Positions 2,846 through 36,568 of a stretch of 64,000 bases of DNA are shown one piece after another (positions within the stretch are counted from its first letter, which is position 1; each line of letters opens with the position of its first letter). Under the pieces are notes generated by a model. The model was given only the letters and a program-made list of their open reading frames with translations, did not search any database and had not been told where the DNA came from. A program made the translations under genes and the position numbers. The stretch is from a virus: positions 32,001-96,000 of IMG/VR virus record IMGVR_UViG_3300010885_044958; one strand, 5' to 3'.

Positions 2846-3508
2846 ATGAAATACTTAGTAATAGTTCTTGGGATAATTATATTATTGCTTTGTGGAGTAA
2901 TTATATATAAAAATCATCAATATAATAAATTGCAAGTGCAAACTACTGAAAAGCCAATTTTTGCGCCAGTTTTGCAAAAATCTGATAAAAATGGCAATAA
3001 TTATGTAGAAATTAAGCAAACACTTTATACTCAAGACCAAATGAATAAAGTCACGGATAGCCTTAGACGTGTTTATAAATCTGGAAAAATCGTTGGGCAA
3101 GTACAAATAGTTACAAAACTAGATACAATTTCCCAGATTATACCAATTTATATCCATGATACTTTAATTACTGTTGTAGACAGCAACAGGTATATAAAAC
3201 AATCATTTCAAGGCAATCTAAACACTAATTCAGGGCAATTTCACTTAGATCTTACTAACGATACAATGACCTATATAGATGCCGTTAAGTACCGTATATT
3301 TAAGGCAAATGAGCATAATATTATCATAAATCATAGCAACCCGTATTTATCTACGATTTCTGGCAATGCAATAAAACTAAAAGAAAAAAAAGTTCAAGCG
3401 GTTTTTGGTCCATATTTTGGATTTGGCTACTCACCTATGAGTAACAGATTAGAACCAACTTTAGGGTTATCATTAACATATAATTTAATTTCAATTTATA
3501 AAAAATAA
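2846..3508 (+). CDS. membrane-anchored, putative spanin-like lysis protein
   Basis: N-terminal TM helix and a C-terminal amphipathic beta hairpin (GPYFGFGY...LGLSLTYNL). Confidence 0.45.
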   Translation: MKYLVIVLGIIILLLCGVIIYKNHQYNKLQVQTTEKPIFAPVLQKSDKNGNNYVEIKQTLYTQDQMNKVTDSLRRVYKSGKIVGQVQIVTKLDTISQIIPIYIHDTLITVVDSNRYIKQSFQGNLNTNSGQFHLDLTNDTMTYIDAVKYRIFKANEHNIIINHSNPYLSTISGNAIKLKEKKVQAVFGPYFGFGYSPMSNRLEPTLGLSLTYNLISIYKK

Positions 3509-3511
3509 ATC

Positions 3512-3916
3512 ATGGCGTATCAAATACCAAAATCAACAATCTCTACCCCAGACCTAGACTATTATGCGTCTATGCTCTTTCAGTTACCTACTAAAGTACA
3601 GTTTTGTCATCATTCTACAACATCTTACGCAAGTCATAAAGCCTTGGATAAAACTTATGATGCATTAAATGACCTAAAAGATTCAATTATAGAAAAACTA
3701 ATAGGTTGCATGGGACATAGATATAAAAATCTTAATATGATTTCGTTATCAAGTTATTATGAAGGAATGAATATGCAAGTAGCTGAGGAAATTTGCCAAT
3801 TTGCCAAAAAATTAATGGATTGGTCAGATAAAAACGGTTATTCTGATATAAATAATCTAAGTCAAGAGTATCTCGGAGTGGGATCACAATTGAAATATTT
3901 ACTTACTTTATCCTAG
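3512..3916 (+). CDS. ferritin/Dps-like protein (DUF5856-like)
   Basis: HH-x-T-x-SYASHKALDKTYD...D...E and a terminal LKYLLTL, typical of phage Dps-like four-helix bundles. Confidence 0.7.
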   Translation: MAYQIPKSTISTPDLDYYASMLFQLPTKVQFCHHSTTSYASHKALDKTYDALNDLKDSIIEKLIGCMGHRYKNLNMISLSSYYEGMNMQVAEEICQFAKKLMDWSDKNGYSDINNLSQEYLGVGSQLKYLLTLS

Positions 3917-32118: not shown

Positions 32119-34062
32119 CTAGAATAAAGAAAGCTGCATTTGTGGTGCTTGCATTTCCTGAATAATTTTTCTAGTAGACGCAATATAGTGTGAATAATCT
32201 ATATCATACTCTGCCCAAGATTTTTCTTCGTAATTATTAAATAGTAATACTGGATTTCCTACATTAATATGTTCAAATGTTGCATTTGTCTTATATTTTT
32301 TTGCAGTACTTTTTTTCTTTTTTAATAAATATGCAGCAGGTCTTGAGAAATAGTACCTATTAAGATTTTGCACAATCTGATTGTCATAATATACTGAATA
32401 ATCTTTACTTATTTTCTTAGAACAAGTATAATGATATATTCCCAGATCAAATCTATCTGGATTAGAAATTGTTTCTTCTATTGGAATGCCTTTTGTAAAA
32501 AAATTATTTAGAGCCTGCGCAATTACATTTTCATTAACAGAATCACCAAGAGGTATTTCATCTTTACCTTCTTCATCTTTAAGCAACTTAAACAAACCTT
32601 TTCTTTTAGCTTTATCTTTTTCTGTCAGAGCAATATAATTATTTACATTTTTGTAGTAGATAAATTTATATTTCTCATGTTCAAATTCAAGATTAAATTG
32701 CTTTTCTATTTCCTTAAAAGATTCTTGATATTTATGTACTTCTTTCGTAGGTACAATTGCTTCAATTCCATCTGTATTTACTGAGACTACCTGCCAATTA
32801 TTTAAAATACATAGCTCAACAGCTTTAGTTAGCACTAACTGCCCTATAAGTCTTAAACGTAAGGCTCCTTCTGGATAATAGAGCCAACTATGCCCTTGAT
32901 CTAATAACCCGCTTACACCATTCAGAATTAGCTTAAAAAAGGTATCCTTGGTTTTCTGTCTAGCTTTCTTTGCTATAATTCTTTCATCTTTAATAGAAGT
33001 ATATCTTTGCAAAACTTCTGGAAATCTAATGCATCTGTAATTAATTATAAGATTTGGATATAGCGATGCGACATCCGAAGTCATTATCTTATATTCAGAA
33101 TTACTATCATACATCTCATTTTCATTAACAGAATGTAATCCACCTATTCCATAAGACAATCTTATACTAGTATTGTTTTCTATTACTGGCAATTCTTCAT
33201 AAAATTCATTTACTGAATTCATTATTCTTTCAAATAATTTCTGAAAAACTGGTAATTTAAAATTAGGATTGAAATCACTTAAAATATCTTTTACTAATAT
33301 TGTAGGTTTTTCAAATCTAGTATAACGCATTTCTCTAGCAAACAAATCTGGTGTTAATCCTTGAGATTCATCTTTATCACATTTTTCTTTACAATAATCT
33401 TGTAAAAGAGATTCAGAAGCTATTTTTATTGCATCGTAAGACATGCATTGAATACCCGTTTCTTTCCAAATATTCTTTCTTAAAGTGATTTCGTCTTTTC
33501 TTTTTTCTGCCAGCGCATCTAAAATTCCTAGATCATGTACATTATTATATTCTCTAACTTGTCTTATTTGATCTAAAGTAAGAACTGTAGATGGATTATA
33601 GGGCAACTCCATCACTACAGGATAATTCAATTGAATTCCAAGACCTTTTAAACTAATTTTTTTAGAGATGCGCAACATTTTTGCCCAGAATAAATATAAA
33701 TCTATTGAAATCCAATCTGTTTTAAAATAAACATAAGGTTTCAAACAATCCCTATTTAAATCTGTGTCGATTACTTTGTCAGAAAAACTTTTTATCTTTT
33801 GCAATAAATCATCTTTCTTTAGATTTTTTAGTTTTGTCCAATCTTTTAGAAAATATTTTATCACAACTTCATCGTAATGTATTCCATTAAACGAAATCAA
33901 AAACCCTTTAAATTTACTAAAGAAGTCATAAATCTTTTGTCTATCATCAAATTCTTCTGATATCTCTAAATTTACAACTTCTTTAGTTTTAAAGTCTTTA
34001 AACCCACATATAAAAAGATTTCCAAAAACTTCTAAATCAAATTCTTTTACTTCATTACTCAT
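32119..34062 (-). CDS. polB: family B DNA polymerase
   Basis: ExoI FDLE, ExoII FNGIHYD, ExoIII YNNVHD; motif A DVASLYPN, motif B KLILNGVSG, motif C NTDGI. Confidence 0.92.
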   Translation of the reverse strand: MSNEVKEFDLEVFGNLFICGFKDFKTKEVVNLEISEEFDDRQKIYDFFSKFKGFLISFNGIHYDEVVIKYFLKDWTKLKNLKKDDLLQKIKSFSDKVIDTDLNRDCLKPYVYFKTDWISIDLYLFWAKMLRISKKISLKGLGIQLNYPVVMELPYNPSTVLTLDQIRQVREYNNVHDLGILDALAEKRKDEITLRKNIWKETGIQCMSYDAIKIASESLLQDYCKEKCDKDESQGLTPDLFAREMRYTRFEKPTILVKDILSDFNPNFKLPVFQKLFERIMNSVNEFYEELPVIENNTSIRLSYGIGGLHSVNENEMYDSNSEYKIMTSDVASLYPNLIINYRCIRFPEVLQRYTSIKDERIIAKKARQKTKDTFFKLILNGVSGLLDQGHSWLYYPEGALRLRLIGQLVLTKAVELCILNNWQVVSVNTDGIEAIVPTKEVHKYQESFKEIEKQFNLEFEHEKYKFIYYKNVNNYIALTEKDKAKRKGLFKLLKDEEGKDEIPLGDSVNENVIAQALNNFFTKGIPIEETISNPDRFDLGIYHYTCSKKISKDYSVYYDNQIVQNLNRYYFSRPAAYLLKKKKSTAKKYKTNATFEHINVGNPVLLFNNYEEKSWAEYDIDYSHYIASTRKIIQEMQAPQMQLSLF

Positions 34063-34850
34063 ATATATTTTATATTATATTTATTACTTCTTCCTCGCAA
34101 AACATCGTATAAAGCATGTTTATTAATTTTTAATATTTCTGAAGCTTCAATAACAGAATTATATATATCTACATCATTAAAAATTACTTTTTTTCCTTTA
34201 TTTTCTCGATTTGCTTTTTTCATATTTTCTTTTACTTCATCAGTTATGATTCTATTACTCATTCTTTTTGAAGCATCTTGTTTTTGTTTAATTCCTTTTT
34301 CTGATTTAAAAAAATCTTTTCTACTATCAGACATTTTCTGTTTAGTTTTCTCTGAGTGTTTTCTACCTAATTGTTTTTTTACGCGCAAAGCAATACTTTC
34401 TTCAGATCTTTTTAGCCCCGTTTGTATTTTAGACATAAACTCACGTAACTCTGAATTTTTTTCATATCGTTCTAGTGCTTTTTTTCTAATTTTTTGTCTA
34501 GTTTCTTCTGAACAAATTCTCCCCAATGTATTTCCTGCTATTTTTGCAATATTATATTCAGGCTTTAATAGATCAATATAATATTGCTCTCTTTTTATAC
34601 AATTTTCAGGTACGCATATTTCTAAAATTTCAAATATAAAATTTTCTATTCCGTATTTATTAAAAGCTCTTTGCAATTTAATATTACAATGTTTTTTATT
34701 TTCAAGATCTTTTTTATGATGCATTAATCGCATATAAATAAAATCTTTCGCTGCGCACGACCCAACATATTTTTTATTGTTTACTATATTTATAATACAA
34801 TAAACACCATTAAATTGCAATTCTTTTCTTTTAATTTCTAAAAGTTTCAT
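34059..34850 (-). CDS. GIY-YIG homing endonuclease with NUMOD3 repeats
   Basis: GVYCIIN...KYVGS, REQYYID, PEYN, repeated (H/R/C)SEETxxK; own promoter at 34872-34904. Confidence 0.9.
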   Translation of the reverse strand: MKLLEIKRKELQFNGVYCIINIVNNKKYVGSCAAKDFIYMRLMHHKKDLENKKHCNIKLQRAFNKYGIENFIFEILEICVPENCIKREQYYIDLLKPEYNIAKIAGNTLGRICSEETRQKIRKKALERYEKNSELREFMSKIQTGLKRSEESIALRVKKQLGRKHSEKTKQKMSDSRKDFFKSEKGIKQKQDASKRMSNRIITDEVKENMKKANRENKGKKVIFNDVDIYNSVIEASEILKINKHALYDVLRGRSNKYNIKYI

Positions 34851-34891
34851 ATACTTTATTGTTTGTTACAATAAAATATACGAAACTCTTC

Positions 34892-34957
34892 TCAATTTTC
34901 CAAATACAAATAAATTAGAATAGACAATATATCGAATTCCTTCACCTCATTTGTCAT
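34892..34957 (-). pseudogene. stranded former 5' end of polB
   Basis: Encodes MTNEVKEFDI versus the present PolB start MSNEVKEFDL, then runs to a stop inside the endonuclease promoter. Confidence 0.8.
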
Positions 34958-35473
34958 TCTACACTAATTTTATTTAAGTTATTTATAAATTCCACAAGTA
35001 TGAAATCTTGCTTTTTGTCCTTTAACTGGATAACAAACCAAACAAGCTTTTTCTCTAGCATATCTAAGCACCTTCTCGGCTTTTTCAAGTGCCTTTTCTG
35101 CATTTTTTACCATTTCTCCAGCATTTTGTAAATCTTCTTGTGCTCTAGTCATTTTTTATTTTTTAAAACGCACCTGTTTCTCTAACATTATCATCTGGTG
35201 GATTACCCCAAACAGCCAATATTATTAAAATTATTAATGTTACTGTTATAATTGTTTGCATTTTTTCTAAAAAATTTTATTGTTCTATTCCTTTTAGATC
35301 ATACCACTGTAATATAGCCGCATACAAATCATGGCGAAAATTCGTATCTCTTTTTATAGATACTTTATCAGACATTGTTTCAGCAGTATGTATTGTAATA
35401 TGATTCTTTGTTATGTGTATTGAACAGTTTTTATCTTCTGTTATTTCTGAAATTGCATTTATTAAATTCATCG

Positions 35474-36568
35474 CTATTCTTGATTTTTAAGTAAGAAATT
35501 ATTTGACACAACTTTAAACGAAACATCCCCATCTAAACTTCTTAAAACAATTCCTTCTCTTTCTGTATCTTTGTTCAATAAGGATTTGCCTTCTGCTAAT
35601 TTTAAAAGTTCTGCAAGTGTTGTTATCATAACTGCCGGTAACATTGGGCAAGTTGGTATATGATATTCATTACAAACAGTACGAAATGCGTCTGGATTTA
35701 ATCGTTTTCCTTCTACAAAAATATTAAACAATCTAATTTGATTTTCTACTTTATAGGGATTGCCTTGTGGTTTTCCTATATATTCGCCTTGCACTATTAT
35801 TTTTTTTGTTTGAAAATGCAAAACTAGTAAATCAATATACTGTTTAAAATCTGTTTCTTCAAAGACTTTATACCATTCATTTTGCTTATTAAATAATTCA
35901 AAGTTTCTAGAACAAATTCTGTATATCTTTTTCTTTCCAAACACTAGTCTATTTACTTCATCATAAATAATTGTTATTGAACTGCCATCTAATTTTTCTG
36001 AAGCACAAAATATTTTGCCTTGAAATTTTTCAAAAATCCACGGCATATTTTGAATTCGTTCTTCATCTGTTCTAGATACTAATTCATTTGGAAACGGCCT
36101 TCTATTTACTTGTGTTAAACTAGGAAATACTTTAACTAAGACTTTTTGTTTAAATAACCATAGCCATTTCTTATACCATTTTTTAGGCATTTTTGGCATA
36201 TTATCTGGTAATTCAACTGTTTTAGAATATTTTTGTATTCCTAATAAATCACTAATATCTACACCTTCTTTTATTAAAAACGGCTGATCAGTTATTTTAC
36301 AACAATCTTTAATAGATAAAATTAATCCTTGCGATATTTGTTGACGCAATTTAATAGTTCTTACTCTAAATTTGCGTTCTCGTAAAAATTCAAAATATGG
36401 AATTTCTGGACAAATCGTGTCTATTTGTATGTAACAACATGCGTCACCTACTTTAAATTCTCCTTTTTTTGCTACAATTTGCCAACCCAAGACACCTATT
36501 TTTTCTATTTTATCCGCACCTTCAATAGGTTCTACTGAAATTACTTTTTGTATACTTGCTAAATTCAT
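35474..36568 (-). CDS. ATP-dependent RNA ligase (DRB0094/Rnl5-like, N-terminal OB domain)
   Basis: LASIQKV...PIEGADKIE N-domain; motif I EKLDGSS, GEYIG, EGIVLR, FKVVS. Confidence 0.88.
   Translation of the reverse strand: MNLASIQKVISVEPIEGADKIEKIGVLGWQIVAKKGEFKVGDACCYIQIDTICPEIPYFEFLRERKFRVRTIKLRQQISQGLILSIKDCCKITDQPFLIKEGVDISDLLGIQKYSKTVELPDNMPKMPKKWYKKWLWLFKQKVLVKVFPSLTQVNRRPFPNELVSRTDEERIQNMPWIFEKFQGKIFCASEKLDGSSITIIYDEVNRLVFGKKKIYRICSRNFELFNKQNEWYKVFEETDFKQYIDLLVLHFQTKKIIVQGEYIGKPQGNPYKVENQIRLFNIFVEGKRLNPDAFRTVCNEYHIPTCPMLPAVMITTLAELLKLAEGKSLLNKDTEREGIVLRSLDGDVSFKVVSNNFLLKNQE

Follow-up and report, generated by a model that had tools for sequence, protein, structure and literature searches.

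The stretch of DNA analyzed here, referred to as the window, comprises 64,000 nucleotides (bases 32001-96000) of the 134,236-base IMG/VR virus record IMGVR_UViG_3300010885_044958, for which the completeness estimate is 73%. The locus of interest is one at which a homing endonuclease gene lies between two copies of the start of a DNA polymerase gene. Every gene of the region is on the minus strand, and the coordinates given below are positions in the window unless another locus is named. In minus-strand order, a 57-amino-acid open reading frame (ORF) that ends at 34979 is followed, after 21 nucleotides, by a stub consisting of ten codons of a polymerase allele (34957-34928; ATGACAAATGAGGTGAAGGAATTCGATATA, encoding MTNEVKEFDI), then by a 263-amino-acid ORF that encodes an intact, free-standing GIY-YIG endonuclease (34850-34059), and then by a 647-amino-acid ORF that encodes an uninterrupted family-B DNA polymerase (34062-32119). 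The host is an uncultured freshwater phage that is distantly related to the crAss-like phages.

The codons of the stub are ATG ACA AAT GAG GTG AAG GAA TTC GAT ATA, and those of the working polymerase start are ATG AGT AAT GAA GTA AAA GAA TTT GAT TTA (34062-34033, minus strand; ATGAGTAATGAAGTAAAAGAATTTGATTTA, encoding MSNEVKEFDL), where the ATG overlaps the stop codon of the endonuclease gene as ATGA. The two 30-mers are identical at 23 of 30 bases and 8 of 10 residues; five of the seven base differences are at third codon positions, and four codons differ synonymously. Similarity stops after D-I in the stub and D-L in the working copy, immediately 5′ of the E codon of a D-x-E motif. Past this point the stub frame adds 11 unrelated codons (LSILIYLYLEN) before a TGA at 34894-34892, for a full reading frame of 21 codons plus TGA (34957-34892), and it is not in frame with the endonuclease gene because the 107 nucleotides from 34957 to 34850 are not a multiple of three. 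The original prediction, made from the sequence alone, gave these positions, letters and the ATGA overlap correctly, and it was also right that the two copies encode nearly the same peptide with differing wobble positions and that their similarity ends at D-x-E. Comparison with relatives maps the junction to the same D-I/L-E codons.

The N-terminal polymerase peptide of each of 117 loci was sought in the 3 kb upstream of its own polymerase gene. The stub peptide of the window scored 40, compared with a maximum of 30 in 351 control frames from the opposite strand of these loci. The signal from DNA only was weaker: when the upstream 3 kb was shuffled by mononucleotides, 2 of 200 shuffles reached 23/30. 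The stub, the endonuclease gene and the restarted polymerase gene are real features of this DNA.

The 647-residue protein matched PHROG family phrog_1252, 'DNA polymerase' (E 1.3e-99), and matched 0 Pfam and 0 NCBIfam families, so its family-B membership rests on fold and motifs. The AlphaFold2 model had a predicted local distance difference test (pLDDT) value of 93.5 and a predicted template modeling (pTM) score of 0.88. Among the 50 Foldseek matches listed from the PDB, all were family-B polymerases (Tgo, KOD, 9N, Pol alpha and E. coli Pol II; best E 2.2e-14), the best being archaeal and eukaryotic enzymes. A sequence search of the PDB was weak (E 0.35 for the whole sequence), with motifs A-C aligning to a KOD-type polymerase. 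The residues D9, E11, D330/S333-P336, K377-N381/G385 and N429-T430-D431 were invariant in 45 relatives. D9-x-E11 is the first exonuclease motif (ExoI) of a family-B polymerase, and the last three groups correspond to polymerase motifs A, B and C. The best matches in deposited phages were DNA polymerases of crAss-like phages, at 26-29% identity. The name polB used in the original prediction is appropriate on these grounds (phrog_1252, fold and motifs). The ORF spans the whole length of its relatives (100% query cover against homologues of 618-652 residues), and the polymerase ORF alone is complete, which is not what is seen with a gene in pieces, where both fragments are needed for the protein.

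The 263-residue protein matched PF01541 (GIY-YIG; 35.3 bits, cut-off 22.6, residues 14-100), the NUMOD3 motif of Pfam (30.3 bits), phrog_314, and NCBIfam TIGR01453, 'group I intron endonuclease' (120.8 bits, cut-off 56.05, residues 15-262, profile positions 3-211 of 215). Family match thus predicts an I-TevI-type GIY-YIG homing endonuclease that includes the C-terminal DNA-binding part. The gene lies outside any detectable intron and adjoins the conserved polymerase gene. An RNA hairpin with a perfect 23-bp stem and a 5-nucleotide loop occupies 34890-34840 on the minus strand (-25.8 kcal/mol, z -7.85), and 0 of 200 shuffles were equally stable; hairpin-like Rfam matches within 33700-35300 were confined to this interval. 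The endonuclease AUG (34850-34848) sits in the 3′ arm, and by analogy the hairpin is likely to be a translational brake on the endonuclease. The stub had been predicted to run into an endonuclease promoter, a part that did not stand: a scan of 33900-35300 for sigma-70-type sites found 7, compared with 9.9 +/- 3.6 in shuffles, which is chance level, although the host may use another promoter type, and the spacer holds the hairpin instead. A second GIY-YIG gene is present in the same phage (40274-41167, minus strand), where it is flanked by a 419-amino-acid and a 51-amino-acid ORF; its product is 41% identical to the first over residues 15-122.

The closest relatives of this locus (L005, L007 and L118-L120, from three contigs) have a polymerase that is 82% identical. 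None of them has an endonuclease or a stub, and their polymerase gene starts 4 nucleotides after a small upstream ORF. A stub in endonuclease-free relatives had been named beforehand as an observation that would speak against the prediction, and none was seen in these loci. At the DNA level, the window and L005 are 79.9% identical over 1991 nucleotides, with the alignment beginning at the polymerase start and nothing upstream aligning. At the site, L005 reads GTG AAG GAA TTT GAT ATA GAG; the last 18 nucleotides of the stub match it at 17/18, and the corresponding bases of the working copy do so at 15/18. In the working gene, the first ~24 codons (34062-33991, minus strand) are unusually diverged and form a probable co-conversion tract. 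Mismatches to L005 per 30 nucleotides from codon 5 were 8, 12, 4, 1, 3, 4, 6 and 6, and codons 5-24 had 20 mismatches in 60 positions compared with 24 in 180 in the following 60 codons (Fisher P 0.001). Among 133 locus pairs with 5-20% divergence in the second segment, the window/L005 pair had the highest ratio of divergence between the two segments (2.5), the other 132 having a median of 1.0 and a maximum of 2.25. In the protein, the N-terminal residues PNYFEVGI of L005 are GNLFICGF in the window, and the PNYFEVGI tract is conserved among relatives whose polymerase is 58-82% identical to that of the window. Within its first 24 residues, the window matches P0003 and L025, two relatives at 60%, at 17/24, compared with 14/24 for P0002, a relative at 82%.

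The divergence step at about codon 24, together with the greater similarity of the stub to L005, makes the working start look foreign and the stub resident. It is supported but not proven by these comparisons that about 24 codons of a foreign polymerase 5′ end came with the endonuclease as a co-conversion tract, and that the stub is the remnant of the resident gene. Where the original prediction spoke of a recoded N-terminus, the working copy indeed differs and looks imported; selection for recoding is not required, as the 77% identity of the two copies corresponds to ordinary allele divergence (79.9% for the window and L005). A single-protein scan of viral contigs found no closer relative, and a metagenome scan found none closer than 82%. 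A degenerate DNA pattern for NEVKEFD matched 12 places, none of them with this polymerase, and a DNA pattern for an uninterrupted stub-type allele matched only the two L005/L007 contigs.

Another relative, L038, was observed to have its first 20 codons around D-x-E strongly diverged from those of several close relatives (17-20/60 compared with 24-31/180). Its divergence ratios are the next highest after that of the window, and no endonuclease was seen upstream of its polymerase gene. The pattern may be the trace of a co-conversion by an endonuclease that has since been lost.

The layout recurs in other phages. The search with each locus's own N-terminus placed three further loci above every control (L060, L036 and L163), and a fourth, L048, was found through its endonuclease. 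L060 has a polymerase 39% identical to that of the window and a GIY-YIG-like ORF 30% identical to the window's endonuclease by tblastn. This ORF begins MMEQKLIDIECF, which is the stub fused in frame, and the L060 polymerase, which begins MIMEQLLIDCEVF, again has an ATGA overlap with the endonuclease stop. In L036 (polymerase 43% identical to that of the window), an ORF with NUMOD4 and HNH domains begins MKILYDVE-EIWK, with MKILYDVE as the in-frame stub; the polymerase begins MKILFDVEVY, and its ATG is 17 nucleotides before the endonuclease stop. L163 encodes MNQALIDIEF, after which come 27 residues with homology to the L060 endonuclease leader and then a stop codon; nothing of the endonuclease body is left, and the L163 polymerase reads ...NQALADIEVY. 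On sequence, L163 looks like a decayed copy of the layout. L048, which is on the same contig as L178, has an HNH endonuclease 53% identical to that of L036 that begins MEESKWQNF-EIWK. Polymerases of its relatives start MESKWQK, its own starts MKTKWQK with the first codons inside the 3′ end of the endonuclease gene, and an 11-nucleotide perfect direct repeat flanks the insert. The L048 stub taken alone is not significant (its score is below the controls), and L048 is a probable further case of the same layout.

In the four strong cases, the end of similarity is at D-x|E, at D-x-E| or no more than two codons away. In every case except the window (L060, L036, L163 and L048), the endonuclease ORF has the stub as its in-frame N-terminus. 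Differences between stub and working copy, pooled over four loci, numbered 8, 6 and 18 at codon positions 1, 2 and 3 (P 0.006), and this third-position excess is as expected of two alleles that were both coding as they diverged, and not of a dead copy that decayed in place. The host polymerases of these loci are 39-44% identical to each other, except for L036 and L048 at 65%. At least two predicted endonuclease families, GIY-YIG and HNH, thus display this design in polymerases that are 39-65% identical.

Two loci have related arrangements without a stub. In L045, an endonuclease gene lies just upstream of the polymerase gene, and a 107-amino-acid ORF comes after it. In L078, a 26-codon ORF (MNKQLNSGVYCIYNKQTYKFYIGSNK; 2104-2183 of that locus) lies between the helicase and polymerase genes, its start overlapping the helicase stop and its stop overlapping the polymerase start (ATGA). 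This ORF resembles the N-terminal GIY-YIG motif of an endonuclease that has lost its body through deletion, and with an apparent endonuclease remnant at the same ATGA junction L078 would not be a naive allele. 'KKLMD' matches in L019, L020 and L049 (score 28) were set aside as chance, as they lie inside an unrelated upstream ORF and score below the control maximum. A longer similarity of the L060 endonuclease leader to polymerase residues 12-27 was dropped as unsupported.

Splicing at the locus is unlikely, judging from a search of the DNA with covariance models. cmscan with Rfam over 33700-35300 at E <= 10 returned 8 weak matches, none of them an intron, and nothing reached the gathering score in L060, L036 or L163. 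The same method found a group I intron at polymerase motif A in L074 (79.7 bits), a positive control that demonstrates its ability to see introns in this family. The room for a ribozyme is 77 nucleotides between stub and endonuclease, mostly taken up by the hairpin, and 0 nucleotides between the endonuclease and the polymerase start. No intron at the ExoI site was seen among 155 relative loci, in which a first exon of 10 codons is hard to see by tblastn. When the 33 loci that failed the motif filter were inspected by eye, those reaching the 5′ end had a contiguous N-terminus, except L137 and L165 (low-coverage contig). In L137 the polymerase gene is disrupted near residues 28-65 (3403-3560 of that locus); an N-terminal ORF of 37 amino acids stops prematurely, and a different frame encodes part of what is missing, as would result from a frameshift, a deletion or an assembly error.

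Independent contigs from three other runs overlap the region without a mismatch, and one of these (X1 record 1, 33304-34728) spans the endonuclease-polymerase junction. No contig of the other runs spans the stub junction with 31 nucleotides on both sides. A look-up of RNA runs listed none that contains the stretch. A search of contigs of four runs for an endonuclease-free variant in the same samples gave no convincing joint that removes the endonuclease; a recurrent joint from 34206 to 35447 was not counted, as it had only 21 letters on its shorter side.

We consider it fairly probable that a GIY-YIG endonuclease has been installed at the ExoI codons of this polymerase gene together with an imported gene start, that the resident start has been left behind as a stub, and that no splicing is needed. 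The endonuclease would cut endonuclease-free polymerase alleles at or near the ExoI codons, which are the first conserved DNA of the gene. The donor would be a diverged allele that carries the endonuclease directly before its own polymerase start, and the element would arrive by double-strand-break repair. Such repair would copy the endonuclease gene along with the adjoining donor 5′ end, and the right end would recombine near codon 24 of the polymerase gene. Upstream there would be no homologous partner for the left end, which would be joined illegitimately, so that the first 10 resident codons persist as a dead stub. If the upstream flank is homologous, no stub would be expected (the L078/L045 type), and if it is not homologous, a stub would be (the window, L060, L036, L163 and L048). 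The polymerase would then be translated from the donor start codon that overlaps the endonuclease stop, with neither RNA nor protein splicing required. To judge from the ATGA overlap, translation of the polymerase may be coupled to that of the endonuclease, or may at least tolerate it. Around D-x-E, 5 of 23 bases distinguish the working copy from the L005-type site, and these differences could confer protection from cutting. The splicing-free cassette with a replacement start that the original prediction proposed is therefore retained in its main part, on the basis of the absence of any intron model, the stub-less relatives, the imported-looking N-terminus and the recurrence; the promoter that was to belong to the cassette scored at chance level.

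Several observations weigh against this interpretation. The comparison of stub and working copy with L005 covers 18 nucleotides only, with one and three mismatches. The N-terminal divergence step could reflect locally relaxed constraint, but the PNYFEVGI tract is conserved in relatives. With only ~80% DNA identity to the nearest endonuclease-free relative, the junctions are not mappable to the base. A search for a donor with the endonuclease protein found 26 viral loci, with a best identity of 48% over the catalytic domain and no close relative among them, and of the 38 loci L080-L117 none encodes this polymerase as well, leaving no donor among them. The window stub is not fused to the endonuclease, unlike those of L060, L036, L163 and L048. 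Finally, in L060 it is the working N-terminus, and not the stub, that matches the relative L078.

In one alternative, the stub and the endonuclease arrived as a unit, with a foreign polymerase 5′ fragment serving as the translation start of the endonuclease, and inserted just before the start codon of the polymerase gene, the working start being the resident one. Such an origin would suit the four loci where the stub is the in-frame N-terminus of the endonuclease, the near identity of the L060 and L078 working N-termini, and the endonuclease genes or remnants that precede the polymerase without a stub in L078 and L045. It does not suit the window, where similarity to the endonuclease-free relative lies with the stub and the outlier is the tract of the first ~24 working codons, or L048, where the stub MEESKWQ matches the native MESKWQ of its relatives and the 3′ end of the endonuclease ORF supplies the working MKT; moreover, L078 does not appear to be naive. 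We regard this alternative as improbable. A local tandem duplication of the polymerase 5′ end around an endonuclease gene that was already upstream, followed by divergence of the copies in place, is quite improbable as well. Each stub does share lineage-specific residues with its own working copy (NEVKEFD, MEQ.LID, MKIL.DVE and NQAL.DIE), and the perfect 11-nucleotide repeat on both sides of the L048 insert could have such an origin. However, a dead stub should decay evenly over the codon positions, and yet third positions account for 18 of 32 differences (P 0.006); the divergence step reaches ~14 codons past the duplicated part, which a 30-nucleotide duplication does not explain; and stub and working copy are about as far apart as separate alleles are (77% compared with 79.9%).

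A degenerate or unrecognized self-splicing intron, with the stub as exon 1 spliced to the E codon of the polymerase, is highly unlikely. The endonuclease is a full-length member of the TIGR01453 'group I intron endonuclease' family, the stub followed by GAA... would be in frame, and L074, a locus of this polymerase family, has a true group I intron at motif A (79.7 bits). Against this, no intron family was matched at E <= 10, the spaces of 77 and 0 nucleotides leave no room for a ribozyme core, and a complete start codon with 10 codons would be pointless inside an intron; the ATGA overlap is also found in L060, and the endonuclease ORF overlaps the polymerase start in L036 and L048. Chance similarity or mis-assembly is hardly credible: although 2 of 200 shuffles of the AT-rich flank reached 23/30 and no single contig of the other runs spans the stub junction with 31 nucleotides on both sides, the peptide score is above all 351 controls, ATG aligns to ATG, the stub lies exactly before the endonuclease, and the layout recurs in other contigs, while contigs of three runs match without mismatch, one of them across the endonuclease-polymerase junction.

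Insertions in this polymerase gene are not confined to its start. The polymerase match was interrupted in 17 of 155 loci, and the breaks cluster at few sites. In the residue numbering of the window, they are at 61/62 (ExoII; L052, with a LAGLIDADG ORF), 332-337 (motif A; L061, L062, L064-L066, L068, L074, L075, L078 and L188), 382/383 (motif B; L052 and L078), 430/431 (motif C; L025, L150, L170 and L182) and 552-564 (L070 and L072). A group I intron match was obtained only in L074 among 16 loci scanned. In L078 (2180-6356 of that locus) two breaks split the polymerase gene, one at motif A (…TDDI / MYPTNIEN…) and one at motif B (…KLILNG / …). Both contain a full-length GIY-YIG ORF (311 and 314 amino acids), and Rfam gave no intron there at E <= 1. 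The L078 polymerase is either a gene in three pieces or one with unrecognized introns. L061, a phage contig, also carries a transfer-messenger RNA gene (2055-2423 of that locus, plus strand; full-length match to Rfam RF00023 at 55.3 bits), and its polymerase gene begins ~1.6 kb further downstream.

In the window, an RNA ligase gene (35474-36568, minus strand; PF09414 with a PHA02142 OB-fold domain) and two or three small ORFs are located between a conserved 90-amino-acid ORF and the polymerase gene. L005 has none of these at that place, which indicates that the genes immediately upstream of the polymerase vary.

In the general view, homing endonucleases persist in essential genes by means of self-splicing introns, inteins or the splitting of genes into subunits. 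The locus and its look-alikes would represent another solution in phages, in which the element replaces the first codons with its own copy and requires no splicing. If this is correct, it would account for short 'orphan' ORFs and odd N-terminal extensions on phage endonuclease genes, would mark the ExoI codons as the probable cut site for enzymes of unknown specificity, and would provide a natural example of nuclease-driven allele replacement with a cut-resistant rescue copy. More tentatively, and with somewhat more doubt than belief, we suggest that cassettes of this kind, which replace a gene terminus, are a general third way, besides introns and inteins, for homing endonucleases to reside inside essential phage genes. 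Such cassettes would land at a catalytic-motif codon near the 5′ end, take over the start and leader codons of the gene (as in the in-frame stub fusions of L060, L036, L163 and L048), and bring a diverged, cut-resistant start coupled to their own stop; GIY-YIG and HNH enzymes would have converged on the same D-x-E, and the stub could act as an upstream homology arm that makes homing independent of the neighboring genes. The polymerase family is an unusually dense landing field, with inserts at ExoI, ExoII and motifs A, B and C, and inserts at several sites of one polymerase gene allow different containment strategies to be compared within a single gene.

Among known systems, the T-even Seg and Mob free-standing endonucleases are described in the review of Edgell et al. 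(2010, PMC2988022) as intergenic insertions with cleavage sites hundreds to thousands of bp away, and RNA hairpins restrict translation of T4-type endonuclease genes (PMC2988022). The present locus resembles these in having an intron- and intein-free GIY-YIG or HNH gene beside an essential conserved gene, a hairpin over the translation start, and a presumed inheritance by break repair with flanking co-conversion. It differs in that the junction is inside coding sequence with a duplicated gene start; the word stem 'duplicat' has 0 occurrences in the main text of PMC2988022. One-sided homing of the T4 td intron by illegitimate, microhomology-joined break repair (Parker, Belisle & Belfort 1999, as summarized in PMC2988022) is similar in that only one flank is homologous, which fits the lack of alignable DNA upstream in L005 and the 11-nucleotide repeat of L048. 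Unlike the present locus, it is a laboratory result with an intron, and a natural product with a rebuilt gene start is not described in the relevant passages of that review.

Genes split by endonucleases include nrdA of phage Aeh1 (mobE), gene 43 of Aeromonas phage 25 (seg43) and T4 genes 39 and 60, with mobA between them (PMC2988022; bioRxiv 10.1101/2022.08.31.505936). These also place a free-standing endonuclease in a critical region of an essential replication gene, apparently without splicing in the present case as well. Both halves of such split genes are needed and reassemble as subunits, whereas the stub described here appears dispensable and the working gene encodes everything, including D-x-E. 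With the intron-encoded I-TevI-type enzymes, our endonuclease shares the family (TIGR01453, GIY-YIG with NUMOD3) and a probable catalytic-motif target in a gene of nucleotide metabolism or replication; unlike them, it has no detected ribozyme. In the literature covered by our search, which left most subscription journals outside, no phage was described in which copies of a gene's 5′ end flank a homing endonuclease.

The closest parallel is provided by the mORFs of fungal mitochondria, which make 'gene hybrids' of atp6 in Allomyces macrogynus (Paquin et al. 1994, as cited in PMC3630166) and of atp6, atp9, cox2 and nad3 in Glomus sp. (Beaudet et al. 2013, PMC3630166). According to the passages of the latter paper that deal with them, a LAGLIDADG or GIY-YIG ORF enters a protein gene intronless with a foreign in-frame C-terminus, the native C-terminus is displaced as an unexpressed remnant, and the inserted copy is diverged largely at synonymous sites while the remnant is relative-like (PMC3630166). 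Both systems have an intronless endonuclease ORF, and in the present locus, too, the in-frame terminus would be foreign and the displaced one native. In the window, two copies of one gene terminus likewise flank the endonuclease ORF, one in frame with the gene and the other displaced, the terminus here being the 5′ one. The displaced copy is the relative-like one (17/18 compared with 15/18 to L005) and the divergence of the in-frame start ranks first among the 133 pairs, with a duplicated part of only 30 nucleotides. Unlike in the mORFs, which involve the 3′ end and an organelle, it is the 5′ end with its start codon that is replaced, and the host is a phage; in addition, there is an overlap of the new start with the endonuclease stop, and the old start has become the N-terminus of the endonuclease in four related loci. 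The locus is a 5′-end phage counterpart of the fungal mitochondrial gene hybrids, and it recurs with two nuclease families at one catalytic motif.

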